64,000 nucleotides of DNA from a virus. Below are positions 2,876 through 35,283 of this stretch, piece by piece. The DNA is taken from positions 4,016 to 68,015 of the IMG/VR virus record IMGVR_UViG_3300034069_000907; one strand, 5' to 3'. A program made the translations under genes and the position numbers. Each line of letters begins with the position of its first letter. The stretch's first letter is position 1. The notes under the pieces were generated by a model. That model was given only the letters and a program-made list of their open reading frames with translations, was not told where the DNA came from and did not search any database.

Positions 2876-4634
2876 CTTCCGGAACGTCGTCTATGACGGC
2901 GAGGAGGTTCCCGACTTCAACAAAATGGCGGTCTGGTATTGTCAGAACGTCGTTGCAGGGCATGTGCCGTGCTGCATTTGGGAAAAGCTCGGGTGCCAAC
3001 GCTTTCTCGACATGCTGGCGGCGTCCAAGCGTCTAGGGAGCGAGTTCTACTACAGCCCCGACCACGTAACCGACTTCTGCCTGTTCTTCGAGAAGCTCCC
3101 GCACGTCAAAGGCTTCCACGGCACGTTCGTGGCGGAGCCAGTGCAGTGCTGGTGGTTCGCGGCGATCTTCGGGTTCCGGGAGACGGAGACGGGCTTCCGC
3201 TGGACGCGCGCCGCGGAGATCTGGATCCCGCGCAAGAACGCTAAGACGGCAACGGCCGTGGCGATTGCGCTCTACTGCTCGAATTTCGAGGATGAGCCGG
3301 GCGCCGAATGTCTCGTGTCGGCCGGCTCCGAGAAGCAGGCGGACGTCCCGTTCAAGGCGATCCTCGCCACGATCGACAAGGAGCCGGACCTCACCTCGCA
3401 CCTGCTGATCGAGTCCACCAAGGATGACATCGCGTTTCGGCGGACCGGGGCCACCATGTCGAAGCTCGCGGCCCTGGCGCCGAACCTCGACGGCCTTAAC
3501 CCGCACTTCGTCCTGGCGGAGGAGCTCCACGCGCAGAAGCAGGACGTCATCAGCGTGCTCCGGACCGCGCAGGGTGCGCGCCGGCAAGCGCTGTTCCTGA
3601 CGATCTCCACCGCCGGCCGCTCGACCGCCAGCGCGGCCTACTCGGTGTTCAAGGCCGGTCAGAAGATCCTGGAGGGGAAGCAGCACGCGCCCCGCGTGTT
3701 CATCCTCATGTACGCGGCCGATGAGGCGGACCAGAAGAACCGGTTCGATCTCGGCGTCATCGAGAAGCTCAACCCGCTGTGGGGCGTGTCGCTGTTCAAG
3801 GCGGCGATGGATGAGGAGATCCGCAACGCACTCAACTCGGAGGCCAACCTCGCGGAGTACCTGCGCACCCGACTGAACGTCTGGAGCAAGGCCGCAGGGT
3901 CGCTCTTCAGCGTGGACGATTGGGACAAGTGCGGGAACCGGAAACTGAGCCTGGATCTCCTGGCTGGCTTCCCGATGTACGTGGGCGTGGATCTCGCGTC
4001 CCACTCCGACATCAACGCGGCGTGCTTCATGGTGAAGGTGGAAGACACCTTGCACATGGTCATGCGGTTCTGGATCCCGGAGGAATCGGACCGGTTCAAG
4101 GATGATCGGTTCGCCGACGCCTTCATGCGGTGGGCCGAGGACAAGGTCATCATCAAGACCGCCGGGAACCATGTCGATCACGAGAAGATCCTCGCCGACA
4201 TCCTGGACATGATCGAGGGGCACACGGTTCTCGGCTTCGCCTTCGACAACTGGCAGGCCGACTACCTCATGGGGCAGACGGAGAAGCGCGGTTACGAGAC
4301 CTTCCGCGTCTCGAAGAGCCCTCAGCAGCTTACCCGCTCGACGGATGACCTGATCGCCCGGCACCGCAGCCCGGAGCGGCTCGAGCACGACGACAACCCG
4401 GTCATGTCCTGGTGCGTCGGCAACGTGGTGGGCTTTTGGGACACGAACGACAACGTGCTCCCGAAGAAGGAGAGCAAGAATTCTAAGCAGTCTATCGACG
4501 GTATAGACGCTGGAGTTCTGGCGAATGCAGCCCGGATGTACCACGAGGCCGGGCTCATGGAAGGTGACGGGCGGGTGAAGAAAGCCAATCCGAACATCTA
4601 CCTCAAGAGAGGTCTTGCAGGAGCCGCCGCATGA
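2787..4634 (+). CDS. terL: terminase large subunit (start could be ATG 2925)
   Basis: IWIPRKNAKT Walker A, LAEELHA Walker B, TISTAG coupling motif, YVGVDLA and SIDGIDA nuclease aspartates. Confidence 0.95.
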   Translation: MGLTNRSLRPSKRRPTNSRASVSRTVANDNFRNVVYDGEEVPDFNKMAVWYCQNVVAGHVPCCIWEKLGCQRFLDMLAASKRLGSEFYYSPDHVTDFCLFFEKLPHVKGFHGTFVAEPVQCWWFAAIFGFRETETGFRWTRAAEIWIPRKNAKTATAVAIALYCSNFEDEPGAECLVSAGSEKQADVPFKAILATIDKEPDLTSHLLIESTKDDIAFRRTGATMSKLAALAPNLDGLNPHFVLAEELHAQKQDVISVLRTAQGARRQALFLTISTAGRSTASAAYSVFKAGQKILEGKQHAPRVFILMYAADEADQKNRFDLGVIEKLNPLWGVSLFKAAMDEEIRNALNSEANLAEYLRTRLNVWSKAAGSLFSVDDWDKCGNRKLSLDLLAGFPMYVGVDLASHSDINAACFMVKVEDTLHMVMRFWIPEESDRFKDDRFADAFMRWAEDKVIIKTAGNHVDHEKILADILDMIEGHTVLGFAFDNWQADYLMGQTEKRGYETFRVSKSPQQLTRSTDDLIARHRSPERLEHDDNPVMSWCVGNVVGFWDTNDNVLPKKESKNSKQSIDGIDAGVLANAARMYHEAGLMEGDGRVKKANPNIYLKRGLAGAAA

Positions 4635-6070
4635 GTTTCAAGCAATGGTCCGCGGCGGTCGATGGCGCAGCGAAGGAGGCCAGCCTCCCCGGCGTGCCGG
4701 TGGTGAGCCTCAGCAACATGCCGCCCGATCTCCTGGATCGGGGTTGGGACAGCCTCAACGGCCTACTCGGCCTGGATAGCCGCTCGACCTACCTCTACGG
4801 CAAGAACAGCACGGGAATCGCCATTGCGGTGATGTGCGCCGACGTCATCGCCCGCGACATCTCCAAGGCCGAGATGCTGCTCTACAAGCGCCGCACCACG
4901 GGCCGCGGCTACGATCTAGTGCAGGCCAACGAGCACCCCATCGCCCGCATGTTCATGCTGCGGCCGAGCCAGTGGCACCTGTGGGTGGAGCTCTGGCGCA
5001 TGACGGTGCTGCACCTGAAGCTGACGGAGAACGCCTACCTCTACAAGGATGGCTTCCGGGCGGATGGATCCTTCGATGGGCTGATCCCGATCCAGCCGGC
5101 CAACTGCCGGGCCATGGTCTCCCCCGGCGGCAAGCTGTTCTACGAGGTGTTCGCCGGCACCGAATACGAGAAGGCGCAACTCGGGCAGAACTACTTCTTG
5201 GTGCCGGCCGAGCGGATCATCCACATGCGCGGCCGCACGATGGATGGCCTGTATGGGCTCTCGAGCGTGATGCTCGGGGATCCGATCTTCGACATCGTGT
5301 CGGCGATCGGCGCCTATCAGCGCAACGTCTTCGACAACGACGGGCAGCAGGCCCTCGCCTTCGAGACGGAGGGCGCGTTCGGCTCCGAGGCAGACAGCGA
5401 TGCGGCCTTCCGGCGCCTGAAGGGACAGCTTACCGAGCGCTGGAAGAAGTCGCGGACGACGGGCGACCCCATCCTGCTCGAGGCTGGCCTTAAGGCGAAG
5501 ATCATCTCCGCAACCTCGAAGGAATCGGAGGCGAAGGACAGCTTCAATCAGCAGGTGATGCGGATCTGCGGGCTGATGAATTGCCCGCCGCACAAGATCT
5601 TCGCCCTGGAAAACGTGGCGTACAACAACGCCTCCGCCATGAACCGGGCGTACTACAACGACGCGCTCGACCCGGTGGCGACGCTCATCCAGGAGAACCT
5701 TCGCGCCGGCCTCTTCACCGAAGAGGAGATGCTGACGTTCTCGCCGCAGTTCGACCAAATCAAGCTCATGGCGAACGACATCGAGTCGCTCACCAAGCTC
5801 GTGGACATCTGCATGAAGGATGCCCTCCTCACCTTCGATGAGGGACGCGAGGTGCTCCCCTTCCGGTTCGGGCCGATCAAGAACGGCGACCGCCGGATGA
5901 TGCCGGTGAACATGGCGATGATCGGCGCCGACGGCGAAATTATCGCCAACGCGGCCGCGGGCCAGACCCCCAACCTGCCGGCCCCAACCCCGGAGGAGGA
6001 TCCGGACAAGGATCCGGACGCAACCGACGATCAGGAGGGCAAGAACGCTCCCCTGCGGCTCGTGCAATAG
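4631..6070 (+). CDS. portal protein, HK97 family
   Basis: Position after terL; IARDISKAE, ENAY, IIHMRG...GLS, ILLEAGLK, ICGLMNCPPHKI motifs. Confidence 0.93.
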   Translation: MSFKQWSAAVDGAAKEASLPGVPVVSLSNMPPDLLDRGWDSLNGLLGLDSRSTYLYGKNSTGIAIAVMCADVIARDISKAEMLLYKRRTTGRGYDLVQANEHPIARMFMLRPSQWHLWVELWRMTVLHLKLTENAYLYKDGFRADGSFDGLIPIQPANCRAMVSPGGKLFYEVFAGTEYEKAQLGQNYFLVPAERIIHMRGRTMDGLYGLSSVMLGDPIFDIVSAIGAYQRNVFDNDGQQALAFETEGAFGSEADSDAAFRRLKGQLTERWKKSRTTGDPILLEAGLKAKIISATSKESEAKDSFNQQVMRICGLMNCPPHKIFALENVAYNNASAMNRAYYNDALDPVATLIQENLRAGLFTEEEMLTFSPQFDQIKLMANDIESLTKLVDICMKDALLTFDEGREVLPFRFGPIKNGDRRMMPVNMAMIGADGEIIANAAAGQTPNLPAPTPEEDPDKDPDATDDQEGKNAPLRLVQ

Positions 6071-6081
6071 GAGCGGCCACC

Positions 6082-7140
6082 ATGGCGCAGAACGACAATC
6101 TCATTTCGGTCGATGAATTCCTGAATAAGCGGAAATCGGCCGTCGACACGAAGGGCCGCCTGCACAAGGGCGTCATCGGGACGGACGAGAAGGGCGCGGC
6201 GCCCATGTCCTTCAACTCGACCGCCGGCACCTGCCGTTTCACCATGTCCGCCGAGGTCGAAGACCGGGATAAGGACATCGTGTACCAGGCGGGCCTGAGC
6301 CTGACCGAGTTCCTCAAGAACCCCGTCGCGCCCATGTCGCACAATAGCCGGGATTTCCCCGTCGGCGGCTGGAAGGACGTAGAGCAAGTGCTCAACGGGC
6401 GCCCGAAGCGCACCGAAGGCACCCTCACCCTGACAGAGGGCGAGCCGAACGCCGATCGCCTCAAGATCCACCTGGCCGCCGGCACGGTGCGCGCGTGCTC
6501 AATCGGATTCATGCCGAAGACGGTGCAGCGCCGGGCCGTCCCGGAGGATGCGGACAGCTACTCCTGGCCGGGCTACGAGATCCTGTCCGCCGAGCTCTAT
6601 GAGTGCTCGCCCTGCCTGATTCCGGCCAACCCCGCGGCCTTGGCGAAGTCGGCAGAGGCCGGCGGCATGCTCCCGACCGAGATCATCTCCGAGGTGCTCG
6701 ACACCTGGACCCTCGTGTCCGGCATGCTGGTGCCGCGGAAAGCCTTCGAGGAAGAGTTCGCCAAGCACGCGCCCGGGAAGTCGTTCAGCTTCCAGGGCAC
6801 GAACTTCCAGGTCAACGAGAAGGGGATCGCCGAGATCGCCAAGCCGGCGCCGGCCCCCGAGCTCTCCCTCATCAAGCGTCTCGCGAAGGTGCTCGGCATC
6901 GGCGACGACGCTTCCAAAGATCCCGCGAGCCTCCAGGAGGCCCTGAAGACCGCGGGTGCTGAAACCGGAACGGATCCCGTTCCTCCCGAAGCTCAGAACC
7001 AAGAACAGACCCCCGAGCAGCTCGCCCGCGCCGAAATGGCAAAGGACATCGCCGCCCTCGAGGAGCTCGAAGCCATCGCGGAAGCAGAGGCCGAGGTGGC
7101 TCTCCTTGGCGACCGCGTGGCGAAGGCCATGGCCGCCTGA
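6082..7140 (+). CDS. prohead maturation protease, HK97 family, with C-terminal extension
   Basis: EDRDKDIV, NPVAPMSH (catalytic His), ACSIGF (catalytic Ser), LYECSPCLIPANPAA. Confidence 0.92.
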   Translation: MAQNDNLISVDEFLNKRKSAVDTKGRLHKGVIGTDEKGAAPMSFNSTAGTCRFTMSAEVEDRDKDIVYQAGLSLTEFLKNPVAPMSHNSRDFPVGGWKDVEQVLNGRPKRTEGTLTLTEGEPNADRLKIHLAAGTVRACSIGFMPKTVQRRAVPEDADSYSWPGYEILSAELYECSPCLIPANPAALAKSAEAGGMLPTEIISEVLDTWTLVSGMLVPRKAFEEEFAKHAPGKSFSFQGTNFQVNEKGIAEIAKPAPAPELSLIKRLAKVLGIGDDASKDPASLQEALKTAGAETGTDPVPPEAQNQEQTPEQLARAEMAKDIAALEELEAIAEAEAEVALLGDRVAKAMAA

Positions 7141-7207
7141 GGCGCGGCACCCCTCAGTTCGAAACCGGGTGTCGCAACCGCGTCCCCGTAGCAGGAGAAA
7201 ACCCGAA

Positions 7208-8647
7208 ATGTTGACCCTTAAGCAGTGGCGCGAGAAGCTGGCGGGCATCCACAAAACCCTCGCCGAGCTCAAGGCAGCGGCGAAGGCGAAGGATGCCTCT
7301 CCCGAGCAGAAGGGCGCCTACAAGACCGCCCTCGATGGCATCGTGGAGTGCGTGAAGCACATCGATGAGCTCGAGGAGGAAGAGCGCATCGAGGGCCTGG
7401 CCGCCAAGGCCGCCGGCACCCCGTCGGGCGGAAAACCCGGCCAGGAAGAGGGCCACGACGTCGGCGACGGTACCGTGTGGGCGGTCCCGGTGAGCGAGGA
7501 GGAGAAGTCCCCGATCTTCATCCCGACCGTCATCATGGCGTCCCACTTCAAGTCTCAGGCGAATGCCAAGAGCGGGACGTTTCAGTCTCCGATCGAGGTC
7601 ATGCGTGAGGAAGGTTACGGCCGCATCGCCGATGACATCCTCAAGATGCAGGCTCGCCGGGCCCACGAGAAGGGTCTCCGGGTCAAGACCAACTCGACCC
7701 TGACGGCCCAGGACGGCGGCATTCTCCTGCCGACGCCCAACAGCGCCTCGATCATCCCGTTCCTGCGGAGCCAGAACACGTTCCTGGACATGGATCCGCA
7801 GCGGATTCCGCTGATCGGCGGCCGGTACAATCAGCCGGTCGGAACGGGTAGCTCGACCGCCGGGTACGTCGGCGAAGGCGCCAAGAAGCCCGTCGGATCG
7901 CCCACGTTCGGCGCGATCTCGATGAGCTCCAAGAAGCTCGCCGGTATCGTCATGGTGACGGAGGAGGCGCTCAAGTGGAGCCTCGCGGACCTGCGGGCCT
8001 ACATCACCAACGATCTGCGCGAGGCCCTCTCGCAGACCATGGACACGGCCCTGTACTTCGGCGCCGGCTCGGCCACCGTCCCGTTCGGTATCCTCCAGCG
8101 GACCGCGGACATCAACACGTTCGATGCCTCCTCGACCGCCGCCGGCTCCACGTACTTCGCGGATCCGACCAAGCCGACGGTCGCCGAGCTCGACCGGATC
8201 GCCACGCTGATGATCCTCGCGATCACCGATCGCAACATCAGCGCCGGTCCGAAGTTCGCGTGGCTGATGAATTACCACCTCCAGCAGTACCTGATGAACG
8301 CTCGCGGTGCGAACGGTCAGAAGATCTACCCGGAGGTGGAGAACGGCACCTGGAAGGGCTTCCGTCTCGTCGTCACCAACGCCATCCCGAACAACGGCGG
8401 CACCAAGACGGACGAGTCGATCCTGGCGCTCATCGATTGGTCGAACGTCATGTTCGGCGTCGATGAGGATGTGACCGTGCGCACCTCCTCGGAGGCCACG
8501 ATCGACCCGGGCACCGGCGTGCTGGTGAGCCTCTTCCAGCAGAACATGCAGGCGATCCTCATGGAGTGCCGCCACGACATCGCCCTCCGCCGGCCGGGAG
8601 CGATCTCGGTCCTGCGTAAGGCTCGTTGGGGCTCCATCGCCGCCTGA
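7208..8647 (+). CDS. major capsid protein, HK97 fold
   Basis: ATG 7208 after GCAGGAG SD; N-terminal coiled-coil delta domain; DGGILLP, YVGEG..KP, KKLAGIV..TEE, PFGIL motifs. Confidence 0.93.
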   Translation: MLTLKQWREKLAGIHKTLAELKAAAKAKDASPEQKGAYKTALDGIVECVKHIDELEEEERIEGLAAKAAGTPSGGKPGQEEGHDVGDGTVWAVPVSEEEKSPIFIPTVIMASHFKSQANAKSGTFQSPIEVMREEGYGRIADDILKMQARRAHEKGLRVKTNSTLTAQDGGILLPTPNSASIIPFLRSQNTFLDMDPQRIPLIGGRYNQPVGTGSSTAGYVGEGAKKPVGSPTFGAISMSSKKLAGIVMVTEEALKWSLADLRAYITNDLREALSQTMDTALYFGAGSATVPFGILQRTADINTFDASSTAAGSTYFADPTKPTVAELDRIATLMILAITDRNISAGPKFAWLMNYHLQQYLMNARGANGQKIYPEVENGTWKGFRLVVTNAIPNNGGTKTDESILALIDWSNVMFGVDEDVTVRTSSEATIDPGTGVLVSLFQQNMQAILMECRHDIALRRPGAISVLRKARWGSIAA

Positions 8648-10164: not shown

Positions 10165-10514
10165 TGCCGTCAGTTCCCGCCGGCCGCCGCTCGACCTTCG
10201 TGGAGCTCCAGCGCGCAACTGAGACGCGCGATCCCAAGACTAACGCGCGTGTCCGCACTTGGGCGAAAGTTTCGGAGGCCTGGGTCTCATTCCTGCCCAT
10301 GCGCGGCACGGAGGATTACGTCGATGAGGCCCGGATTGGGCAAGTCGTCGTGCGGCTTGAGGGCGACATGTTCGACCTCGCTGAGGCGCGCAATGAAGAT
10401 CGAATCCTCGAGGTTGATACCGGCCGGATAGTGGACATCAAAGCCGTTCTGCCGAGCCCGGATTTTCGCGACAAAATCCGGATTGAAGGTACTCAGGGAG
10501 AGGGGGCGCGGTGA
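10164..10514 (+). CDS. head closure / head-tail adaptor (SPP1 gp16-like)
   Basis: TGATG coupling at 10162-10166; GRR..VELQRATETRD...WA...AW..FLPMRGTE pattern. Confidence 0.82.
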   Translation: MPSVPAGRRSTFVELQRATETRDPKTNARVRTWAKVSEAWVSFLPMRGTEDYVDEARIGQVVVRLEGDMFDLAEARNEDRILEVDTGRIVDIKAVLPSPDFRDKIRIEGTQGEGAR

Positions 10515-10858
10515 TGTCGATAGTGCCGACCGTCGATTTTCATTTCCGTCGTAACTCCAATGAGCCCGCAATTGCATGGGATTTAGAGGCGGAGGATGGA
10601 GCTAAAGCGGATCTATCTGGGTACGAAGTGGAGTTGATTATTGTTTGGCGAGAGCTTCGGATTGTCAAAAACTCGGGCGACAACAACGGCTTGGTAATTG
10701 ACCGCGATACTTCCCGTGTCACCTGGACACCCACTCTGGAAGAGAGCCGGAAGATTCCAGCAGCAAGAAGCTCGGTCTACGAGCTGTACGGAACTTCTTC
10801 CTCAACCCGCATTCCGCTTGTTACCGGATACCTGATCGGATCCGGCGGAATTACCTGA
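10511..10858 (+). CDS. small beta-rich structural adaptor (BppU N-terminal-like)
   Basis: DLSGYEVELII...GLVIDRDTSRVTWTPTLEES...YEL pattern; family is a by-eye guess. Confidence 0.6.
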   Translation: MMSIVPTVDFHFRRNSNEPAIAWDLEAEDGAKADLSGYEVELIIVWRELRIVKNSGDNNGLVIDRDTSRVTWTPTLEESRKIPAARSSVYELYGTSSSTRIPLVTGYLIGSGGIT

Positions 10859-10899
10859 ACTAAACCCTTGAAATCGAAATACCTCACAGGAGATAAGTC

Positions 10900-11295
10900 A
10901 TGGCGGGATTTTCCGATTACGTTGAGAATGCTGTTCTAAATTGGCTTCGGGGTACGGCAATGCCGACTCCTCCTGCCGGGCAGTACGTCGGCCTTTTTTC
11001 AGCAGACCCCACTGATGCAGCCGGCGGCGGAACCGAGGTCACGACCGCCGTGCGTACCGCGGGCCGAGTTGCGGCGACTTTCAGCGCACCGGATGCGAAC
11101 GGCAAGATCGCCAACTCGGCACTGATCGACTTCGGGAATGCAGCCGGTCCCGCGACCGTCTCGCACTTTGCCGTATTCGATGCGGCTACTGGCGGCAACA
11201 AGCTCTGGTCCGGCCCCCTTGCGGCCTCGAAGAGTGTTGCCGCAACCGATCCCGTCGCCTTCGCGGCCGGTGCGCTCAGCCTGACTTCGGATTGA
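10900..11295 (+). CDS. conserved phage structural / fibre-associated protein (131 aa)
   Basis: AGGAGA SD; SDYVENAVLNW...YVGLFSADPTD...HFAVFDAATGGN motif widespread in phage neck and tail modules. Confidence 0.8.
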   Translation: MAGFSDYVENAVLNWLRGTAMPTPPAGQYVGLFSADPTDAAGGGTEVTTAVRTAGRVAATFSAPDANGKIANSALIDFGNAAGPATVSHFAVFDAATGGNKLWSGPLAASKSVAATDPVAFAAGALSLTSD

Positions 11296-11305
11296 GCCTT
11301 CCGCG

Positions 11306-12736
11306 ATGACGATTGCGCAACGTATCACCGTCCGGCTCGGCCCAGACACTCACCGCGTGCGGGTGCCAGGTCTGCACGCCATAGCCCCAGGCGCATTGCT
11401 CGCGGCGGTGATCGCTCTCTCGGATCCTGCGGCGAATCTTACAGTTGGCAAGGCCCTGGCCGCCGACGTGAGCGCCTCCAGCATCGGTCAGGGCGCGCTG
11501 ACGGCCAGCAAGCCTCTGTCGGTCAGTGTTGTTGCGCAGTCGGTCGCGGCGGCATCGCTCTCGATAGGTAAGACCTTCGACAGCGCAGCCTTCGCGACTT
11601 CAAGCGCAACCGGCGTTCTCACGATCCGCCAAGATTTGTTCGGCGCCGGGCCCTCCACCAGCCTCGTTGCTGCCGATCTCATCGTTGGCAAGTCGCTTCA
11701 AGGCGATGTGACAGCGGCTTCCACCGCCGCTGCCGCTCTGACGCTCTCACAGAATCTGGCGGCTAACGTAAACGCGCCAGCCGTCACCACTGCGGTGCTC
11801 ACCGTGGCGCGTAACATGGACGCGACTGCGCTGGCGCAATCCAGCACAAGCGCAACGCTCAACGTATCCCGGGCTTTGGCCGGCGCTGCTACGGCCACCT
11901 CGCTTGCTGCCGCAGCCCTGACAATTACCAAGGGGCTAGCCTCCGATGTGTTTGCCCAGAGCACGACGAGCGCAGTGCTGACGTCTGCCGCCGCTGAGGA
12001 CACCGATGCGGCGGCCTACCTCAACGCGCAGACCACCGCGCCCAGCAGTACAGAACGCTCGCTAGTCAATGCCCTGGTGAAAGGGCTCAAGTCGGACGGC
12101 GATTGGGCCAGCCTCGACAACATCTCGATCTTCGCGGCCGAGACGGTGCAGGCCGCGCGCCTCAACCTCAAGAACCCGGCCAAGGCTTGGTCGGCCATCA
12201 ACCTACCGACGTTCACCGCGAACCGGGGCTACACGGGAGACGGCGCTTCGGCCTATCTGGACCTGGGAGATCTCTGGAATGCGACCGGCAATCAGTTCTC
12301 GCTGAACAGCGCCACCATCGGCGTCTGGTGCAATCTCCAGGGCGGGACCGGCGTGAAGTCCCCGTTCGGCAATCTCGCGAACAACCCTCGCGACACGGTT
12401 CAAGCCCGCGACACGGCTGGGAATGAGACGATCCAGATCAACCAGACGGCTGCCGACACCTTGCAGGCAAGCCCCGGGACACGAACAGGGCACCGCTCGA
12501 TTAGCCGGACAGGGGCGAACGCGGTCTCAGGCTTCTTCAATGGGGCTAAGGTTCTGACCTCCACCACCGTATCAACGAACATCAACACCACAAACGTATC
12601 AGTTCTCCGAAGCGGTACCGGCTATACGGATGACCGTATTGCTTTGCTCTACTGGGGCGCAGGCCTCTCCGACGCTGCCCTGGCGCGCATCCACAATCGC
12701 TTTAGTGCTTACCTCACAGCAAAAGGAGCCGCTTAA
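11306..12736 (+). CDS. fibre-like protein: nine 20-aa repeats plus C-terminal lectin/LamG-like beta domain
   Basis: Exact 20-aa periodicity at 11438-11977; C-terminal domain resembles an internal domain of 13030-16095. Confidence 0.75.
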   Translation: MTIAQRITVRLGPDTHRVRVPGLHAIAPGALLAAVIALSDPAANLTVGKALAADVSASSIGQGALTASKPLSVSVVAQSVAAASLSIGKTFDSAAFATSSATGVLTIRQDLFGAGPSTSLVAADLIVGKSLQGDVTAASTAAAALTLSQNLAANVNAPAVTTAVLTVARNMDATALAQSSTSATLNVSRALAGAATATSLAAAALTITKGLASDVFAQSTTSAVLTSAAAEDTDAAAYLNAQTTAPSSTERSLVNALVKGLKSDGDWASLDNISIFAAETVQAARLNLKNPAKAWSAINLPTFTANRGYTGDGASAYLDLGDLWNATGNQFSLNSATIGVWCNLQGGTGVKSPFGNLANNPRDTVQARDTAGNETIQINQTAADTLQASPGTRTGHRSISRTGANAVSGFFNGAKVLTSTTVSTNINTTNVSVLRSGTGYTDDRIALLYWGAGLSDAALARIHNRFSAYLTAKGAA

Positions 12737-12990
12737 TGTCTGATATTCTCCTGTTCTACATCATGTCCGCGCTACAGGCCGCTCGCTTCCGTGAGCTCAC
12801 CGCGCAGGATGAGAACCGTCTCGATCCCCGCCTAGTGGATGCGGGCCCCCAGGCAGGAAAGTACGTGCTGCCCAAGCGCATCCGCTTCGCGGAAGAATTC
12901 AAAGCCCATTGGGACGCTTTCGATATGCTGACTGAAGTCGCCATCGATCGCGACGTTGCTTGGCCCCCCGCAGCTTCAGAAGAGCAGTAG
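12736..12990 (+). CDS. hypothetical protein (possible fibre chaperone, 84 aa)
   Basis: TAATG coupling, AAGGAG SD; position directly after a fibre gene. Confidence 0.65.
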   Translation: MSDILLFYIMSALQAARFRELTAQDENRLDPRLVDAGPQAGKYVLPKRIRFAEEFKAHWDAFDMLTEVAIDRDVAWPPAASEEQ

Positions 12991-13029
12991 CTCACAGTAA
13001 ATACCGCTCGCTATTTGGGGAGCTGAAAA

Positions 13030-16000
13030 ATGGCAAAAGAGACAAGACTTGTACCCGGTGCTTCCAGGGTTTCGGGCACTCAATATGTGAGGGCCCCCGG
13101 AGATGGCGATCTATGGGTCGAAATCACCGAGTGGCCGATGGCGGGTGATGTGCCTCATCCCACCATGAAGGGCCAGTTCCTGCGACATACGTTGCCCAGC
13201 ATGGCAGGCCCCAATGGGGTCGGCGGCAAGCGGGTGTCGATGGATAACCTTATCGCGTCTATTGTTTCGGCCAGCTCCAAAGCCATGATGATTTTTGGAA
13301 GCCCTGGGGTTGCTTACGCAGGATCAGCCTTCAGCTTTCAGCCGATCATTTTCGGTGGTTCAGGATCCAAATCATTCACCCTGTCCGGAGTGCTTCCGTC
13401 CGGATGGTCGTTTTCCTCATCGACTGGCTTGCTCTCTACTTCTTCAGCAATCGTCGGCATGTTCACCGGGCTCGCCATCACGGCGACCGATGCGGCTGGA
13501 GTATCCGCGACGCTGCCCGTCACGTTGATCGTCGCCGCCACCATCGAGGCGGCCTCGTACTTCAACCGGATGACGACGAAGCCTGCCGCAGGCGTCGTCT
13601 CGGCGCTCGACACCATGATCTCGACGCTCCGCACCAGCACCGCATGGGCGAAGCTCGATAACCTCTACTTCTTGGCGCAGGACACCTATCAGGCGGCCTT
13701 GCTGAACATCCTCGGCGCGCATCCGCTCCGCGTGGCCGGCTCGCCCACGTTCTCGGCCCGCGGTGGCGTAGCAGGCGCGGCAAACGCTTCGCTCACCAAC
13801 GGCGTGGTTCTGAGCGAGGGCACGCTCGCCAATTACTCCCTGAACTCCGGACATGTTGGCGTCTTCGTGGGAGCGGCGTCAGCCTCTACCTCGCCAATCG
13901 CCGGCACCGGCGCGACCTTCACGACCCAGTTGCTGGCGAGGTCGGCAGGCGGGAACGCGGGCGGCAAGATCAACGGCGGCACCACCATGTCTGCCGCCGT
14001 GGGAACCCGGGGGGGGCATACGGTCGCCTCGCGGACGGGGGCCGCCGCAAGCGCTCTGTATCGAAATGGTGGGGCGGCTCTCGCAACGACGACGAGCGCA
14101 CCAACCGCCGTCCCGGTCTCGCCTCTCTACGTGCTGCGCGACGATACCGCCTACGCGACGGACACAGTTGCGGCCTTCCACTCAGGGGCCGGGCTGACGC
14201 AGGCCGAGAACCAAATCGTCTATGACGCCCTGAACACCGCGATCACCGCCATCACTGCTCTCGGCCCCGCGCCAGCGGCAAACGCCAATGACTTCGACGT
14301 GGTCGTTTACGGCGGCACCCTCTCGGGCCTGATGGCTGCACAGCGGGCTGCCAACCGGGGCGCTCGCGTGGCCATCGTGGAGCCGAGTGCCGAGCTTGGT
14401 GGCGTCGGCCATCACGGTCTGACCTACTTCGATCTCGGCCTCCGTGGCTCCTACCTGCTCGCCAACAACGGCACCGATCGGTTCTTCAAGGCGATCAACG
14501 CGGCCTACGGGCAGGCGGCCCCACTGACGGCGGCACAGAAAGCGGAGCCGAAGGTCTACGATCAGGTCTTCGCCACGACGCTCGCGCAGACGCGGGCCAC
14601 CACATTCCTATCCTCGCCGCTGGTGACGACGGCCGACGTTCAGAAGGCCGGGTCCGCCATCACGGGCATCAAGACGGCGAGTGGCTGGATCACGGGCCGG
14701 CAGTTTATCGATTGCTCGTACGAGATGGACTTGGCGGCCCTGGCTGGCGCTCCCTACCAAGTCGGACGTGAGAGCGTGTCGACTTACGGCGAGCCAGCGG
14801 CAGGCTTCTCGGCCAAAAGGGTCGCCAACGGCGGGTTCAACTACGGGGTCGACGGCGTCACGCCGAACAGCGGCTACCCCGTGCGTCCGCGCCCGGCGAC
14901 GGCGGACGGTGCGGGCGACGGCTTGATCCAGCCCTACAGCTTCCGCTTCCCGATCACGACGGCGGCTGACCGCTTGCCCTTCCCGGTCCCGCCGGGCGGT
15001 TACATCGCCTCGAAGATGGATCAGTTCGTCGCCGTCCTGACGTCGAAGAACGTCCAGCAATTCACGAGCGTGATCTATGTCGGCGGCGACACCGCGTTGC
15101 AAAACAACAAGTTCTGCATCAACGGCTCTCAGGCCAACATCATCCCCTCGCTGGAGCTTCCCGGCGTCCAGGCCGGCTACCCGGATGGCACCCCGGCGCA
15201 GCGGCAAGCGGTGATTGATGAGCTTCGAACGTGGACCCTTCACGTCCTCTACTGCCTACAGAACGATCCACGCATCAGCGCTAGCCTGCGCACGAGTGCA
15301 GCGGCCTACGGTCTCTGCAACGACGAGTTCGTGAACAACCCGATCAAGGGCTTCCCGAACCTTCCCTACATCCGCGAGAGCCGGCGCCTGAAGGGCGCCT
15401 ACGTGATGACGCAGCTCGACGTCCTTCGGGCGGACAATGCGAACAACACCAGCGGTGGAGCGCGGAACAACGTCAAGGCCAACCGCATCGGGCAGTGGAA
15501 CTACGCGCTCGACTCCCATGCGATGGAAATTTACCCGGACGGCACGAACAACATCGTCGTCACCGGCAACGTTGACCCGAAGTATTCCGAGGTCGACACC
15601 TACGACGTCCCATTCACGGCGCTGCACACGGATCCTGCTGGCGCTGGTCACGTCGCGAACCTGACTGTGCCGCAGTCCTACTCGGCATCCTCCGTTGCCT
15701 GGATGTCGGGTCGCCTCGAGCCCAACTTCGCTCAGCTAGCAGAAGCCGCAGGCGAAGCGGCGATGATCGCGGCGGAAGACGGCGTCGACATCTCGGCGGT
15801 GTCCTACACCAAGCTGTCTCGTCGCCTCGGTTCACCGGTGAACACGGCGCTCCCGGTAATCACGGACACCGGAGGTGGCACCTATTCTGTCTCTAACGGC
15901 ACCTGGAACTTTAGCCCGACAAAGTATGATTTCCAGTGGAAGCTAAATGGCGCGACGGTCACGACCGGTAACGGCGCTGCGACCTACACGAGAGATCCTG

Positions 16001-16095
16001 CGGACGCAGGAAAAACCCTGACGTGTGCCGTGATTGCGACCAATATCTCCTCGGCAGCGCAGGCGGTGTCCACTGGCCTGATGGTAGCGGCCTGA
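13030..16095 (+). CDS. multidomain protein: Ig-like, lectin/LamG-like, FAD-dependent oxidoreductase (PF12831-like), Ig-like
   Basis: FDVVVYGGTLSGLMAA...VAIVE Rossmann motif; FIDCSYEMDL, VGRE...YGE, YIRESRRLKG, YDVPF, LEP..AQLAEAAGEAA; SGVLPSGWSFSSSTG He_PIG-like; PVIT..GGTYSVSNGTW..PTKYDFQW Ig-like. Confidence 0.88.
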   Translation: MAKETRLVPGASRVSGTQYVRAPGDGDLWVEITEWPMAGDVPHPTMKGQFLRHTLPSMAGPNGVGGKRVSMDNLIASIVSASSKAMMIFGSPGVAYAGSAFSFQPIIFGGSGSKSFTLSGVLPSGWSFSSSTGLLSTSSAIVGMFTGLAITATDAAGVSATLPVTLIVAATIEAASYFNRMTTKPAAGVVSALDTMISTLRTSTAWAKLDNLYFLAQDTYQAALLNILGAHPLRVAGSPTFSARGGVAGAANASLTNGVVLSEGTLANYSLNSGHVGVFVGAASASTSPIAGTGATFTTQLLARSAGGNAGGKINGGTTMSAAVGTRGGHTVASRTGAAASALYRNGGAALATTTSAPTAVPVSPLYVLRDDTAYATDTVAAFHSGAGLTQAENQIVYDALNTAITAITALGPAPAANANDFDVVVYGGTLSGLMAAQRAANRGARVAIVEPSAELGGVGHHGLTYFDLGLRGSYLLANNGTDRFFKAINAAYGQAAPLTAAQKAEPKVYDQVFATTLAQTRATTFLSSPLVTTADVQKAGSAITGIKTASGWITGRQFIDCSYEMDLAALAGAPYQVGRESVSTYGEPAAGFSAKRVANGGFNYGVDGVTPNSGYPVRPRPATADGAGDGLIQPYSFRFPITTAADRLPFPVPPGGYIASKMDQFVAVLTSKNVQQFTSVIYVGGDTALQNNKFCINGSQANIIPSLELPGVQAGYPDGTPAQRQAVIDELRTWTLHVLYCLQNDPRISASLRTSAAAYGLCNDEFVNNPIKGFPNLPYIRESRRLKGAYVMTQLDVLRADNANNTSGGARNNVKANRIGQWNYALDSHAMEIYPDGTNNIVVTGNVDPKYSEVDTYDVPFTALHTDPAGAGHVANLTVPQSYSASSVAWMSGRLEPNFAQLAEAAGEAAMIAAEDGVDISAVSYTKLSRRLGSPVNTALPVITDTGGGTYSVSNGTWNFSPTKYDFQWKLNGATVTTGNGAATYTRDPADAGKTLTCAVIATNISSAAQAVSTGLMVAA

Positions 16096-16175
16096 ATAAA
16101 TTCTACCCATAACATCGATTCGGCTGGGGCTTTGATTAAGGCAACCAGCCAAATCTCAAGACTCTGGAGGCAAAA

Positions 16176-16676
16176 ATGCGAGGAATTCTTGCGTTCGTCT
16201 GCGGTGCTCTGATCGCAGCGGCGACGCCTGCTGCCGGCGATTATATTCCCTACCGAGACAAGGCAGGCGGCGACGTCCAGCCGTTCGTGCTATTCTGCTC
16301 TACCGGCGTCGGCTACGCGGCTGCGGCTTGCGGTGGGCCGACGACGCCCATGTTCGTCCTCTCGATGCCTTTCGTAAGATCCGGCACCGGGGATCCAATC
16401 ATTTTCGAAGGCGTCACCACCACCGCCAAGCAATTCGCCGTCACGAAACCGCCGGACGCCACCTCCTACCGGTTCTTGAATCCGTGCAACGTCGATGTCC
16501 GGATCCGGCGGGTGTCCAGTATGTCGGAGAGCGTGACGCTTCGGACCGGGACGCGGTTCTTCGCCAGGACGGCCGAGACGCTCGGCACGAGCAATCCCAT
16601 GTTCGTCTCGATCATCGCCACAGCAACCCCGACCGGTGATTGCTCCCCTGAGCTCCAGTACGGGAACGGCGGCTGA
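16176..16676 (+). CDS. predicted secreted protein (Sec signal peptide, 4 Cys in mature part)
   Basis: GGAGG SD; MRGILAFVCGALIAAATPAAG-D signal peptide pattern. Confidence 0.75.
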   Translation: MRGILAFVCGALIAAATPAAGDYIPYRDKAGGDVQPFVLFCSTGVGYAAAACGGPTTPMFVLSMPFVRSGTGDPIIFEGVTTTAKQFAVTKPPDATSYRFLNPCNVDVRIRRVSSMSESVTLRTGTRFFARTAETLGTSNPMFVSIIATATPTGDCSPELQYGNGG

Positions 16677-17464
16677 TGCGCGCCCTCATCGCACTTCTCA
16701 TCTCGGCGGCGCTGATCGTCGCTCCTGCGCACGGCTCGCCCCGCGCAGTAAGCCCCATGATGGGCGACGGCGTGCCGCGTGCTGCCGGGCCTGCCGGACC
16801 GCAGGGAGATTCTGGGCCTGCCGGCGACGCGGGGCCGAAAGGAGAGACCGGGCCCGCCGGCGCTCCGGGACAGGCTGGCGCCAAGGGCGACACGGGGCCG
16901 AAGGGCGACGCCGGGGCCACCGGAACCGCCGGCATCAAGGGGGACAAGGGCGATGCAGGTGCGAAGGGTGACACGGGAGCGGCGGGAGCAACTGGCGCTC
17001 GCGGCCCTCAAGGAGATCCGGGGAATCCGGGCGCGAGCGGCCCTCAGGGAGTCGCTGGAGCCGCCGGGGCGCCTGGGAAGGATGGTGCTCAGGGTAGCCC
17101 GGGGGTGGCTGGACAGGTGGGAGCGACGGGAGCTCCAGGTGCTCCAGGCGCGACAGGTGCCGCCGGCCCCGTAGGCCCGGCGGGCCCGAAGGCCTCGCAA
17201 TTCGTCTGCAACGCGACGATCAGCGAGACGATCGCGCTGGCCGTCACTCTGGCCGGGATCCGGGAGCGCGCCGGCGTCACCTGCGCGGGCGTCCTGACCA
17301 CGGACATCCTGGAGATCTACCCGACGACGCTCCCGACTGGCTTCGCCGTGCACCACGCGGTCCCTACGGCCGCCAACATCTTCCGGGCGACGATCAGCGG
17401 GCCCGCGCTGGCGATCGGCGCCTCCTACTCCATCCCGGTCGCGGTCTATTCGGTGAATCGATGA
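16676..17464 (+). CDS. collagen-like protein with signal peptide
   Basis: MRALIALLISAALIVAPAHG-S; 45 uninterrupted Gly-X-Y triplets counted; C-terminal globular domain with 2 Cys. Confidence 0.9.
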   Translation: MRALIALLISAALIVAPAHGSPRAVSPMMGDGVPRAAGPAGPQGDSGPAGDAGPKGETGPAGAPGQAGAKGDTGPKGDAGATGTAGIKGDKGDAGAKGDTGAAGATGARGPQGDPGNPGASGPQGVAGAAGAPGKDGAQGSPGVAGQVGATGAPGAPGATGAAGPVGPAGPKASQFVCNATISETIALAVTLAGIRERAGVTCAGVLTTDILEIYPTTLPTGFAVHHAVPTAANIFRATISGPALAIGASYSIPVAVYSVNR

Positions 17465-17859
17465 GCACGGCAATTGAGGTGACGATCCATCGGCTCCTTG
17501 CGGTCGACGCTGTCACGGCGATCGTCGGCGAGGACATCAATCCGGACACCGCCGGCGCGCCGCTGCCGAGCATCGCTCTGGACGTAGTGACGGATCGGCC
17601 GTGGGAAGGCCTAGCGAAGTCAAGCGGCACGAACCAAGCCCGGGTGACGGTGAAGCTGCGCACGCGGGAAGCCCTGCAACTCAGCGACCTCGGCGAGGCG
17701 GTGATCGCCGGCCTCAGCCGGGTCAAGGCGACGGTGCAGGGGCGGCGGTGCTCCTGGATGCGCGCCGGCGCCGACGTGACCAGGTGGGCCGACGACGCCA
17801 GCATGTGCGAGCGGCTCATGGATTGGACCGTCACGTACACGGACAAGATCGAGGCCTGA
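17461..17859 (+). CDS. tail terminator (DUF3168 / SPP1 gp17-like)
   Basis: HRLLAVDAVTAIVGEDINPDTAG..LPSI, ARVTV pattern; gene position. Confidence 0.8.
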   Translation: MSTAIEVTIHRLLAVDAVTAIVGEDINPDTAGAPLPSIALDVVTDRPWEGLAKSSGTNQARVTVKLRTREALQLSDLGEAVIAGLSRVKATVQGRRCSWMRAGADVTRWADDASMCERLMDWTVTYTDKIEA

Positions 17860-33289: not shown

Positions 33290-33394
33290 TGCCCTACGCA
33301 ATCTACGTGGCCGTGACGATTGAGCTGATCCCGTCGCTTGTCTGCGCCCGGCCGGCGCGGCACCGCTGAAACTTCCTCATTCTGGAGACTACCT

Positions 33395-34324
33395 ATGACT
33401 GCTGCGCTGAATACCGCGGCGTTCTTCTCCTCTGTCCGACTGAACCCCTTCCCGGGTCATCTCACAACCGGGCAGGTTACAGGTATGCAAGCGATGCTCG
33501 ATGCCGCACCGCCTGACATCGATCTCGACTCTCTGGCGTACTGCTTCGCCACGACTCCCATCGAGACCGGCTGGACCATGCTCCCGGCGCTGGAGAACCT
33601 GAATTACACCACTGCCGCCAACATCCGCAGGACGTGGCCCACAAGGTTCGCCAGCGAGGCCGCAGCGGCGCCCTTCGTCCGTAACCCGAAGGCCCTGGCG
33701 ATCAAGGTCTACGGCGGCCGCATGGGCAACGCGCCCGCCCCGTCGGAGGATGGCTGGATCTACCGCGGCGCCGGCCTTGTGCAGAGCACGGGCGAGGAGA
33801 ACGCCATCCGCGCCACCAAGCGCCTGCGCGAGCTCGGCTACCTCACGAAGGATCAGAGCTTCGTCACCAACCCGGAGCTCTATCTCGTGCCGATCCTGGC
33901 GGCCGCCGTCATGTTCATCGGCATGGAAGAGGGTTGGTTCACCGGCAAGAAGCTGTCCGACTTCTTCCGCGCCGGCAGGGCGGACGCCGTCGGGGCCCGG
34001 GCCATCATCAACGGCAACAACAAGGCCGCCGAGTTCGCGCTCCACTGGAAGGGCTTCAAAACGGCTCTCGAGAAGGCGGGGTACAAGCCGGGCGCGGTGG
34101 TTTCCAAAATCCCCGTCCCGCCCGTAATTGTAAATCCGATTTCGGAAAATCCAAAAATGCCTGAAATTAAATCAAATGGCGAGGTGCCGGTGTCGAAACC
34201 CGAAACCTTGCCTGCGCCAAAGCCGGTTGTCGTGCCGGCCGACAAGCCGCTGACCCCGCCCAAGGCGGAGCCGCCCAAGACCCTCGCGGAGGCCATCCGC
34301 CGCCGCATCTTCGGAGTGTCGTAG
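33395..34324 (+). CDS. endolysin, glycoside hydrolase family 19, with Pro/Lys-rich C-tail
   Basis: ATG 33395 after GGAG; ATTPIETG, ENLNY, YGGRMGN, DGWIYRGAGLVQSTG, ARAIING motifs. Confidence 0.88.
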   Translation: MTAALNTAAFFSSVRLNPFPGHLTTGQVTGMQAMLDAAPPDIDLDSLAYCFATTPIETGWTMLPALENLNYTTAANIRRTWPTRFASEAAAAPFVRNPKALAIKVYGGRMGNAPAPSEDGWIYRGAGLVQSTGEENAIRATKRLRELGYLTKDQSFVTNPELYLVPILAAAVMFIGMEEGWFTGKKLSDFFRAGRADAVGARAIINGNNKAAEFALHWKGFKTALEKAGYKPGAVVSKIPVPPVIVNPISENPKMPEIKSNGEVPVSKPETLPAPKPVVVPADKPLTPPKAEPPKTLAEAIRRRIFGVS

Positions 34325-34326
34325 CC

Positions 34327-34908: not shown

Positions 34909-34911
34909 CCG

Positions 34912-35283
34912 ATGCCTGGGGAGGGCCCGCCCATGCCAGCCGTCGAGATCGCACAGCTTCTCAGGGATTACGGCATGGTCGGGGCCCTCGGCCTGGCCCT
35001 CTTCGTAATCGGCGTCCTGGTGAAGTGGTGGCGCGAGGCGATGAATGCCCGCCTCGAGGACAAGGATAAGATCCAGGAGAGAATGGCCGTCGCTCTCGAG
35101 CGGCAGTCGTCGGTCAACCAAGAGCAGACGGAAGCGATCAAGGAGTTGCGCGACGGCCAGGGCGCGATCCTGAAGACGGTGACAGAGGCGGCCCTCACCG
35201 GTGCAGCGAAAGACGGCACCATCCTCGACAAGATCGGCGAGCTCCGTGGGGCAGTCGATCGCAACACGGGGGCTCGGCCATGA
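34912..35283 (+). CDS. single-TM coiled-coil membrane protein (start may be ATG 34933)
   Basis: GMVGALGLALFVIGVLV TM followed by KWWR and heptads. Confidence 0.7.
   Translation: MPGEGPPMPAVEIAQLLRDYGMVGALGLALFVIGVLVKWWREAMNARLEDKDKIQERMAVALERQSSVNQEQTEAIKELRDGQGAILKTVTEAALTGAAKDGTILDKIGELRGAVDRNTGARP

Follow-up and report, generated by a model that had tools for sequence, protein, structure and literature searches.

The gene pair and its features

The window analysed here, a stretch of 64,000 nt from the IMG/VR virus record IMGVR_UViG_3300034069_000907, belongs to a phage of the Methylobacterium type. Two adjacent ORFs, A and B, lie in it between a gene for a 1021-aa fibre protein and a tail completion gene. 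The features are as follows.

16096–16175, + strand: AT-richer gap after the 1021-aa fibre gene, with a hairpin and the Shine-Dalgarno sequence GGAGG (16166–16170) of ORF A
16176–16676, + strand: ORF A, 166 aa, small partner protein
16176–16238, + strand: predicted signal peptide of ORF A, residues 1–21, MRGILAFVCGALIAAATPAAG followed by DY; rule-based n/h/c call, predicted SPase I site after AAG
16239–16346, + strand: variable mature N-terminal segment of ORF A, residues 22–57, with Cys41 and Cys52
16347–16676, + strand: conserved beta-sandwich core of ORF A, residues 58–166, with invariant Cys104 and Cys156; its stop overlaps the start of ORF B
16676–17464, + strand: ORF B, 262 aa, collagen-like fibre
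16676–16735, + strand: predicted signal peptide of ORF B, residues 1–20, MRALIALLISAALIVAPAHG followed by SP; rule-based call, predicted site after AHG
16736–16786, + strand: conserved mature N-terminal peptide of ORF B, residues 21–37, SPRAVSPMMGDGVPRAA; family motif SSPMMGDGVQRTGP
16787–17191, + strand: collagen triple-helix region of ORF B, residues 38–172, 45 uninterrupted G-X-Y triplets
17192–17464, + strand: C-terminal knob of ORF B, type C1, residues 173–262, with invariant Cys178 and Cys203 and an equally invariant HH motif; its stop overlaps the next ATG
17461–17859, + strand: tail completion (gp17-like) gene, 3′ neighbour of ORF B and translationally coupled to it; Pfam PF11367 Tail_completion_gp17, 8.1e-07

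At the junction between the two ORFs, CTGATGC, the TGA stop of A and the ATG start of B have one base in common, and the TGA of B (17462–17464) overlaps the ATG of the next gene (17461) as ATGA. A preliminary description of this DNA had pointed to the TGATG coupling, to a collagen of 45 triplets and to even numbers of cysteines in the mature proteins, and all three observations hold: the G-X-Y repeats form a single run of exactly 45, and of the cysteines of A (positions 9, 41, 52, 104 and 156) four lie beyond the signal, those of B being the two at positions 178 and 203. The overlap that it reported between the collagen stop and a tail-terminator start is likewise present, but "tail terminator" is only an approximate label for what Pfam places in Tail_completion_gp17. 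An IMG/VR search found no close relatives of this gp17-like protein.

The ORF A and ORF B proteins

The mature ORF A protein consists of two parts of very different conservation. Its N-terminal segment shows 32% pairwise identity, is absent in some members, and is of a type that tends to track the type of the phage head module; within it, Cys41 and Cys52 are either jointly present or jointly absent in the alignment. The core, which carries a C-terminal ELQYGxGG motif, shows 76% identity across homologues, stays 66–80% identical between phages whose capsid and connector genes are unrelated, and is modelled by AF2 with a pLDDT of 85.5. Its closest folds are uncharacterised phage beta-sandwich proteins of ~100 aa: a BFVD search returned 34 entries with E from 2.3e-5 to 1e-3 (TM by target at most 0.81), and the structural neighbours of A in the Atlas (TM 0.72–0.76) are 95–100% viral. 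In the PDB, only generic jelly-roll or sandwich folds and no named family were matched (Foldseek E ≥ 3.5e-3; VIA best Z 6.8), and neither A nor the upstream X-type proteins belong to a family in Pfam or PHROGs. Resemblance to XepA, an exported protein of PBSX, is weak (Z 5.5). When mature A was modelled as a complex with residues 21–70 of B in three copies, the score, obtained without controls, was 0.00 and speaks neither for nor against binding. On reading of the translation, gp57 of phage KPhi1, which lies upstream of a knob-bearing fibre gene, has no obvious similarity to A.

ORF B matches the Pfam family Collagen (PF01391) with E 2.5e-22 and 78.8 bits against a cut-off of 27.2, and its PHROG matches are confined to the collagen repeats. 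If the predicted triple helix forms, the rod would be ~39 nm long. There is no particle-attachment N-terminal domain in B, the signal and a 17-residue peptide directly preceding the collagen. This peptide is 62% identical among type-N1 homologues, above both signal and knob, and its type co-varies with the type of the A core; the A core and the B knob, in turn, reassort between phages. The C1 knob is modelled as a six-stranded sandwich (AF2 pLDDT 89.9) and is homologous to phage fibre ends, being 39–45% identical to those of Xanthomonas phages CP2, SAC and KPhi1; tblastn with residues 172–262 matched CP2, SAC, KPhi1 and phiXaf18 (E 7e-8 to 1e-3). PDB folds were matched only weakly (Foldseek E ≥ 0.058), the best Z by VIA (6.0) being that of a tailspike C-terminal domain (HK620). 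We also considered whether the knob might be a copy of the tip of the phage's own tail fibre and serve as a receptor mask; this idea found no support, as the window holds no second copy of the knob, tail-fibre genes included (best E 0.05, in a non-coding frame).

Signal peptides and paired cysteines

Both proteins begin with a basic n-region, continue with an uncharged h-region of 14–16 residues whose Kyte-Doolittle hydropathy peaks at 2.8–3.1 over 11 residues, and have small residues at −3 and −1. The parts are MR, GILAFVCGALIAAA and TPAAG before D in A, and MR, ALIALLISAALIVAP and AHG before S in B, both of the kind expected for Sec and signal peptidase I by a rule-based n/h/c test, which was used in place of SignalP. 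The strict form of the rule is passed by only 3 of the 107 high-GC3 ORFs of the window, A and B being two of the three, and AF2 models the signal of A as a lone helix (residues 2–16). No lipobox ([LVI][ASTVI][GAS]C with Cys at +1) occurs in either protein; the sole N-terminal Cys of A stands in an AFVC context in the middle of the h-region, B has none, and most homologues have no Cys there. Export by the Tat pathway was considered and rejected, since in both proteins the n-region is short and holds one Arg, residue 2, where a Tat signal would show a long n-region with the motif S/T-R-R-x-F-L-K. Hydrophobic N-termini are also seen on some major capsid proteins of related prophages (L011, L024), so that in this phage group a start of this kind does not by itself mark a protein as exported.

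The preliminary description had taken both proteins to be exported by Sec-type signal peptides, proposing the conservation of the signals as a check and start sites downstream of the hydrophobic segments as the alternative. Signal-like N-termini are retained in ~85 homologues of A and in 23 of 23 paired homologues of B, as well as in database homologues of B. Their sequence drifts (in A, identity across homologues is 29% in the signal vs 76% in the core), and their n/h/c character is conserved, with AxA-type sites in both proteins at all loci. Downstream starts find no support: a Shine-Dalgarno-like motif precedes A in 17 of 23 loci and the internal Met of B in 0 of 19, and the Met near the end of the variable segment of A is not conserved.

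The cysteines follow the signals. The core pair is retained in the ~85 signal-bearing members of the A family, and is not kept in any of the five full-length members that have no signal (P0095, P0096, P0101, P0102 and L043:558-1046). Among C1 knobs, both cysteines are found in 19 of 19 proteins with a signal (alignment A4) and the pair is missing from the signal-less relatives in L051, CP2 and KPhi1; among C2 knobs, two cysteines are found in 12 of 12 with a signal and none in the signal-less knob of L043. This comparative pattern is the main evidence for export, and since the homologues are related to each other it reflects a few independent transitions rather than ~90. Taken together, the conserved signals, the missing Shine-Dalgarno motif at internal starts and the restriction of the Cys pairs to signal-bearing proteins make it very probable that both proteins are exported.

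Distribution of the cassette and its signal-less relatives

The succession of A and a signal-bearing collagen was found in more than 25 prophage loci of Methylobacterium and Methylorubrum. In a non-redundant set of 23 loci, a collagen ORF with a signal comes immediately after the A homologue; the two meet at TGATG in 16 of them and at ATGA in 3, and −4 to +23 nt separate B from the structural gene that follows; further cassettes were seen at L036 and L053–L056. At least four virion architectures host the cassette, always within the late operon, in the head or head-tail junction region in every architecture, and never in a non-phage context. Homologous collagens range from 19 to 68 triplets, and three types of end knob have been exchanged between loci. 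L040 and L045 have the connector gene and no cassette, and the sibling phage L054 has A and B in the absence of the Gp80/476/1021 block. As read from these loci, the cassette is conserved yet accessory, because close relatives exist without it. Cultured carriers include Leaf108, Leaf91, Leaf117, M. aminovorans NBRC 15686 and M. salsuginis. Among 50,697 cultured phage records, tblastn found no match to A or to its signal-less relatives P0101 and P0095, and a literature search on signal-bearing collagen-like phage proteins and on Methylobacterium prophage collagen returned nothing relevant.

Signal-less modules of an A-type protein and a collagen or fibre protein are present in structural operons of other, uncultured phages (L050–L052), and at L043, in a related Methylobacterium prophage whose connector is 59% identical, a signal-less pair takes the place of the cassette ahead of the connector gene. 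Prophages of this L043 type and of the signal-bearing L014 type are found together in one isolate genome. The A-type homology at L043 is weak when taken alone (hhalign E 0.001, probability 21%) and relies on context. These sister modules have the same order as the cassette, a small A-type beta-sandwich protein and then the collagen or fibre protein, whose knob is of type C1 or C2, and the same kind of overlapping junctions, but they have no signal peptides and do not have the family's paired cysteines. By sequence comparison, the cassette is descended from signal-less phage fibre modules of this kind. Because both genes carry export signals and matching Cys pairs, the folding of the fibre appears to have moved from the cytoplasm to the periplasm, given the export that the signals predict.

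The gap upstream of ORF A

The AT-richer gap and its GGCTGG/CCAGCC hairpin, to which the preliminary description had drawn attention, are both there: the GC content is 43.8% vs 63–73% in the flanking genes, and the two arms of the stem lie at 16122–16127 and 16145–16150. The 80-nt gap folds with a dG of −20 kcal/mol (z −1.96; 7 of 200 shuffles fold as well). A separate promoter, which had been suggested for this gap, receives no backing, as consensus searches found neither a sigma-70-like promoter nor a T-tract terminator in it and at most loci the gene before A ends only 4–30 nt short of A or overlaps it. Other loci do not conserve the gap. A hairpin of different sequence recurs only downstream of a 1021-aa-type gene (L053) and is absent in the sibling L054, so that the hairpin would seem to be the 3′ end of the fibre gene before A. 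GC3 in the window is 0.76–0.78 for the 1021-aa gene, A and B vs 0.87–0.90 for core genes; at other loci, GC3 of A is 0.82–0.93, near that of the adjoining structural genes.

Discussion

The reading that we prefer is that A and B, coupled in translation and made late, are the two proteins of one fibre module whose maturation takes place in the periplasm. From the comparisons above we infer export and cleavage, disulfide formation, trimerisation and contact between A and B. Transcribed together with the late virion genes, both proteins would be threaded through Sec and lose their signals, A after Gly21 and B after Gly20, and host Dsb enzymes would close disulfides 41–52 and 104–156 in A and 178–203 in the knob of B. 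Three copies of B would form the collagen rod, tipped by a small beta-sandwich knob as at the tips of phage fibres and tailspikes, and A, with its phage-type beta-sandwich, may be the obligatory partner of B, acting as an adaptor or folding helper at the conserved mature N-terminus of B. The pair would thus not be incorporated during cytoplasmic assembly, and would meet particles and the outer cell surface once holin, endolysin and spanin merge the compartments. Since Sec delivers only to the periplasm, a role at the outer surface needs lysis. As to the fate of the module, for which the preliminary description had named decoration of virions at lysis or a cell-surface or matrix protein, we lean slightly, and tentatively, towards a free surface- or glycan-binding fibre on host envelope material and debris at and after lysis, and to the reading in this form we would give a probability of roughly 45%. 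A point against this explanation is that a 39-nm rod exceeds the width of the periplasm. Moreover, no part of the signal-less virion-type relatives has been lost from the module, and attachment to particles would suit this no less well than a free role.

Such attachment could take place after lysis, if A and B fold and oxidise in the periplasm and then dock, as accessory head or neck fibres, on finished particles when holin lesions have merged the compartments, before or just after the outer membrane breaks, related phages having kept a cytoplasmic, Cys-less version. Canonical holins do open very large inner-membrane lesions and many decoration proteins attach to finished capsids, and the parts, gene order and late-operon coupling of the cassette are those of the signal-less relatives that sit among structural genes. 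The homology of the B knob to annotated phage fibre ends (with tailspike C-terminal domains as its weak best structural matches), the position in the head or head-tail junction region in every architecture and the tendency of the variable N-terminus of A to track the head module, with A core and B knob reassorting, point the same way, as do the swapped knobs and variable rod length, which are typical of host-recognition fibres. However, we know of no tailed phage that adds parts after lysis, and with an A core so alike across phages with unrelated capsids and connectors, it is difficult to envisage where specific docking would occur. Some members have no variable segment at all, and the link of this segment to the phage backbone could be mere physical linkage. 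We regard decoration of virions after lysis as rather unlikely, though likelier than the readings that follow.

It could also be that the N-termini are not signals or are bypassed, and that A and B are ordinary fibre proteins assembled in the cytoplasm, as their position in a structural operon, the existence of signal-less homologues and the hydrophobic N-termini of some capsid proteins of related prophages might suggest. This seems improbable in the face of canonical n/h/c regions and AxA-type sites in both proteins at all loci, Cys pairs that occur only alongside a signal, and the absence of an alternative start with a ribosome-binding site or of a conserved Met near the end of the variable segment of A. 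A lysogenic-conversion moron that is switched on in the lysogen by a private promoter at 16096–16175 and alters the envelope or excludes other phages would account for the AT-richer gap and for the GC3 of the 1021-aa gene, A and B below that of core genes, and the slot has taken up further genes at other loci, among them one on the reverse strand in L014 and an HNH gene in L040. But the missing promoter consensus, the short or overlapping junction before A in most loci, the overlap or abutment of B with the next structural gene in all loci with no terminator after B, the GC3 of A elsewhere and the lack of a lipobox in both proteins make this very improbable. Least credible of all is an accessory role in lysis, in which the pair would be a periplasm-spanning, spanin-like or XepA-like complex that aids envelope breakage: both proteins are late and predicted to be extracytoplasmic, a rod of ~39 nm could bridge the envelope, and A has its weak fold likeness to XepA, but a separate lysis cassette lies 16 kb from the pair in this window (33338–35283), with an endolysin (phrog_181, 7.4e-37) and holin-like and i-spanin-like proteins. 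Neither A nor B has a lipobox or a long membrane anchor, the cassette never adjoins lysis genes in the loci examined, and swappable knobs would be unexpected in a lysis factor. A spanin of the Rz/Rz1 type in particular was rejected, A and B lying outside a lysis cassette that has its own i-spanin-like protein and having neither lipobox nor coiled coil.

Related phages thus hold one fibre module in two states, cytoplasmic and Cys-less or with signals and paired cysteines, which amounts to a natural experiment on a phage fibre switching its folding compartment, provided that the predicted export takes place. If the exported fibres end on particles, a post-lysis maturation step would be added to tailed-phage assembly; if they act free, phage adhesins secreted late would form a class of their own, new to science, with a possible influence on adsorption, on the masking of debris and on how plant-associated Methylobacterium behaves in biofilms. 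Since the cassette is present in several Methylobacterium and Methylorubrum strains in culture, the system lends itself to experiment, and disulfide-stabilised bacterial collagen rods of adjustable length may be of interest to protein engineers.

Comparison with known systems

The accepted view is that tailed phages put their particles together, fibres included, in the cytoplasm. Among phage fibres, the 374-aa collagen ORF of Xanthomonas phage CP2 and gp56 of KPhi1, a "putative tail fiber", have, like B, a small beta-sandwich knob at the C-terminal end of a G-X-Y rod, with knob homology at 39–45% identity (E 5e-7 to 1e-3), but unlike B they have ordinary N-termini without a signal peptide and no Cys178/Cys203 pair. 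In these two, and in collagen-like minor tail and tail-fibre proteins in general (such as PHROG 5073, 6320 and 1806), which likewise have no signals, rod length varies and ends are swapped, as among the homologues of B.

Late phage proteins that use host Sec and act outside the cytoplasm include signal-peptide and SAR endolysins, spanins and XepA of Bacillus PBSX, and lysis factors are, to our knowledge, the only late phage proteins known to be exported. A and B resemble them in being late and, by their predicted signals, Sec-directed; these factors, however, are encoded in lysis cassettes, whereas A and B are of fibre type and lie in the head or head-tail region. Outside phages, B resembles the Bacillus exosporium collagen BclA, which is anchored by ExsFA/BxpB, and the exported collagen-like adhesins Lcl of Legionella and Scl of streptococci, all of which have an extracytoplasmic collagen-like rod and a C-terminal globular domain. 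BclA also has a small partner that takes its N-terminus (ExsFA/BxpB), as A may do for B. No sequence relationship to B was detected beyond the G-X-Y repeat, and these are cellular genes, whereas A and B turned up in no setting other than late operons of phages. Finally, Cor and Llp are exported, receptor-masking phage lipoproteins that can shield progeny from wasteful adsorption. They are small proteins with a lipobox, which A and B do not have, but protection of progeny in a similar manner is one candidate role of a free fibre.

Genomic setting and distribution of the cassette

The window derives from a temperate siphovirus of the Methylobacterium/Methylorubrum type, with the following gene order.

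Features of the window
(+) large terminase, portal, S78 protease and HK97-type capsid, in this order
(+) then gp6-like connector, head completion
(+) then 115-aa protein, Gp80-like protein, 476-aa fibre-like protein, small ORF, 1021-aa fibre-like protein with a FAD_oxidored domain
16176-16676 (+) ORF A, after the 1021-aa fibre-like gene
16676-17464 (+) ORF B, after ORF A
(+) then tail completion (gp17-like), Neck1-type protein, major tail protein, chaperones, 1766-aa tape measure
(+) then distal tail genes, lysis genes, integrase
33338-35283 (+) lysis cassette: endolysin (phrog_181), holin-like and i-spanin-like proteins

All the features listed in the preliminary description, which had seen in A and the collagen B two exported proteins, were found again in the window sequence: TGATG where A meets B, the ATGA shared by B and the gene after it, the 45 uninterrupted G-X-Y triplets of B, four Cys in mature A and two in mature B, and the gap before A (16096-16175, GC 43.8%) with its GGCTGG/CCAGCC hairpin. 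The observation is confirmed, and comparison greatly extends it. GC3 is 0.76-0.78 in the 1021-aa gene, A and B versus 0.87-0.90 in core genes, a drop that is less pronounced in other loci (0.82-0.93 for A). Immediately 3′ of the 476-aa fibre-like gene, and overlapping its stop, lies a small ORF of ~85 aa (12736-12990), a position where a fibre assembly helper is usually encoded.

A has 49 close homologues, and all the named ones belong to Methylobacterium or Methylorubrum; a profile search of A against 1.84 billion representative proteins matched just 42 clusters. In every one of the 23 non-redundant loci compared, taken from IMG/VR and GTDB genomes, the A homologue is directly followed by a collagen ORF that also starts with a signal peptide. 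The junction is TGATG in 16 of these loci and ATGA in 3, and the next structural gene overlaps B or starts within about 20 nt. Gene callers often overlook the collagen ORF and annotate short ones in other frames in its place. The cassette lies in the late operon in every case examined, with no non-phage occurrence, and is found in at least four virion architectures.

Virion architectures carrying the cassette
HK97-like with gp6-type connector: cassette directly 3′ of the capsid gene and a small gene
Lambda-E-like heads
Mu-like heads: cassette 3′ of the Mu F gene
DUF4055-portal type

The sibling phage L054 shares the head and tail genes of the window; its A-B adjoins head completion on one side and tail completion on the other, the Gp80/476/1021 block being absent. 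A-B is therefore a unit of its own. Since the related prophages L040 and L045 keep the connector gene without the cassette, it is also accessory. Compared with L054:7540-8001, window positions 10511-16095 additionally hold the 115-aa, Gp80-like, 476-aa fibre, small ORF and 1021-aa FAD_oxidored fibre genes; this indel is distinct from A-B. L014 and L038 also have 1020-aa relatives of the FAD_oxidored fibre near A-B. Other insertions, too, occur in the same head-tail slot: an AT-richer gene of 282 aa on the reverse strand in L014 (3964-4812, -) and an HNH endonuclease gene in L040 (3973-4536, +). The slot is a hot spot for accessory DNA.

Evidence for export

At the N-terminus both A and B show the n/h/c organisation typical of Sec/SPase I signals, and neither a lipobox nor a Tat motif is present. 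Only 3 of the 107 high-GC3 ORFs of the window pass a strict signal-peptide rule, and the neighbours A and B are two of them; the third (60519-61871, -, MSNARNAAVALYTLALANAATA...) is a weak pass. Among A homologues the signal is 29% identical as against 76% for the core, so that its sequence drifts while its character is kept. Of 23 loci, 17 have a Shine-Dalgarno-like motif upstream of A; before the internal Met of B such a motif was found in none of 19. Nor is there conservation of the Met near the end of the A variable region. Translation starts beyond the hydrophobic segments, which had been named as what would overturn the export reading, are thus unsupported.

The strongest argument for export is a natural experiment, the comparison of signal-bearing with signal-less modules. 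Prophage L043, with a connector 59% identical to that of the common type, carries in the same slot an A-like protein ending in ELPYGGGA (A-type homology weak, hhalign E 0.001) and then a collagen with a C2 knob, both signal-less and both without the family Cys. L050, L051 and L052 have further signal-less modules: a small beta protein X comes first, A second, and a collagen or fibre ending in a C1-like knob third. Cys104 and Cys156 are kept in about 85 signal-bearing members of A and are not kept in the five full-length signal-less ones; apparent exceptions are truncated gene calls, for which the DNA shows the full signal. Similarly, both Cys are kept in 19/19 signal-bearing C1 knobs, and the pair is absent from C1-like ends without a signal (L051 and the Xanthomonas phages CP2 and KPhi1). 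Such a restriction of Cys pairs to signal-bearing forms would be expected were these to fold in the oxidising periplasm. The family members being related to each other, it represents a few transitions and not some 90 independent events. IMG genome 2823679482 is the source of both L014, with signals, and L043, without. The comparative evidence supports the export reading well, and we put the probability that A and B are exported at about 0.85.

The HK97-type major capsid proteins of L011 (3985-5385) and L024 (4099-5568) have a signal-like hydrophobic start (KTFLSLMAAGLMALAFITAAPDAHAA) before the delta domain, which cautions against taking every hydrophobic N-terminus as an export signal; those of other relatives start with a milder hydrophobic stretch and a common A-C-x-I-G-P-R-I motif. 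In some prophages, neighbours of the cassette are also signal-bearing (L005:5716-6258 and 6255-7598; L033:5408-5935; L046:3308-4558 and 4555-4959). Among these proteins are an X-type beta protein with two Cys and a 447-aa protein with a LamG-like end; those of L046 are a 416-aa protein and a 134-aa protein bearing a C3-like knob without collagen.

Structure of A and B

AF2 models A (pLDDT 85.5) as a beta-sandwich core (residues 61-165) with an isolated helix at the N-terminus. The only clear structural neighbours of A are uncharacterised tailed-phage proteins of ~100 aa (BFVD E 2e-5, TM up to 0.81; also in Atlas), and matches in the PDB are generic.

The plan of B is fixed: signal peptide, conserved mature peptide of type N1 (SSPMMGDGVQRTGP) or N2 (ARGIGSPGMGPPGP), 19 to 68 triplets, and an end knob of one of three unrelated types, C1 (that of the window), C2 or C3. 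Full-length signal-bearing knobs have two Cys each, except for L010 (a third Cys) and the extended C3 end of L032 (one). The A core type goes with the N-terminal type of B, and the knob type assorts freely. With the textbook collagen rise of 0.286 nm per residue, the 45 triplets of the window compute to a rod of about 39 nm. The C1 knob is modelled as a six-stranded sandwich (pLDDT 89.9); its structural matches are all weak, the best being phage tailspike C-terminal domains, and its sequence shares 39-45% identity with the ends of Xanthomonas phage fibre proteins. An invariant His-His (AVHHAxPTAAN; His231-His232 of B, window 17366-17371), present in 19/19 aligned C1 knobs, could be a metal or ligand site. 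In the database proteins P0087 and P0065 the first half of A is fused in frame to the last half of a C1 knob, apparently through a deletion that took away the remainder of A, the signal of B and its entire collagen.

The gap upstream of A

A separate promoter had been suggested for 16096-16175. Neither a promoter nor a terminator consensus was found there, and most loci leave little or no space before A (4-30 nt, or an overlap), so the suggestion was not borne out. L053, which also has a 1021-type gene upstream, has a hairpin of different sequence at the same position (z -3.3); in the sibling L054 there is none. From this distribution the hairpin seems to belong to the upstream fibre gene, as its 3′ end, and not to the cassette.

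Possible function

A and B would be synthesised alongside the late proteins and would pass through Sec, be cleaved and become oxidised; B would trimerise into a rod with the knob at its far end, and A would act as its partner. They would then be unable to join particles during cytoplasmic assembly, and would encounter particles and the cell surface only at lysis. Tentatively, we favour a free fibre that may bind host envelope glycans or debris at and after lysis. Another possibility, which we consider less likely, is that A and B are added to finished particles once holin lesions merge the compartments. The module does retain all the parts and the position of its signal-less relatives, always in the head or head-tail region, and the variable mature N-terminus of A tends to track the head-module type while core and knob reassort. 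However, such docking has no known precedent, the A core is highly conserved across unrelated virion types, and the variable segment is missing in some members, its correlation with head type being possibly mere linkage.

As an alternative to the free fibre, a spanin-like role is unlikely because the window carries its own lysis cassette, and the tight coupling of A and B to neighbouring genes makes a moron role unlikely as well. The holin-like protein of the lysis cassette (193 aa) has several hydrophobic segments, and the i-spanin-like protein (123 aa) a single N-terminal membrane segment and a coiled-coil tail. A receptor mask made from the phage's own fibre tip was also considered and is unsupported.

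Comparison with known collagen-like phage proteins

Xanthomonas citri phage CP2 (AB720064.1) carries a collagen-like ORF of 374 aa that bears a conserved knob of type C1 (L001:3125-4249, +) and runs antisense to the deposited ORF4, whose translation (PVAPVSPLAP...) resembles collagen read in reverse; to judge by these reading frames, the deposited annotation probably has the wrong strand at ORF4. Our literature search found no account of a cassette such as A-B. What the present comparison adds is the association of Cys pairs with signal peptides, and a module that exists in two states, signal-bearing and signal-less, within one host genus.
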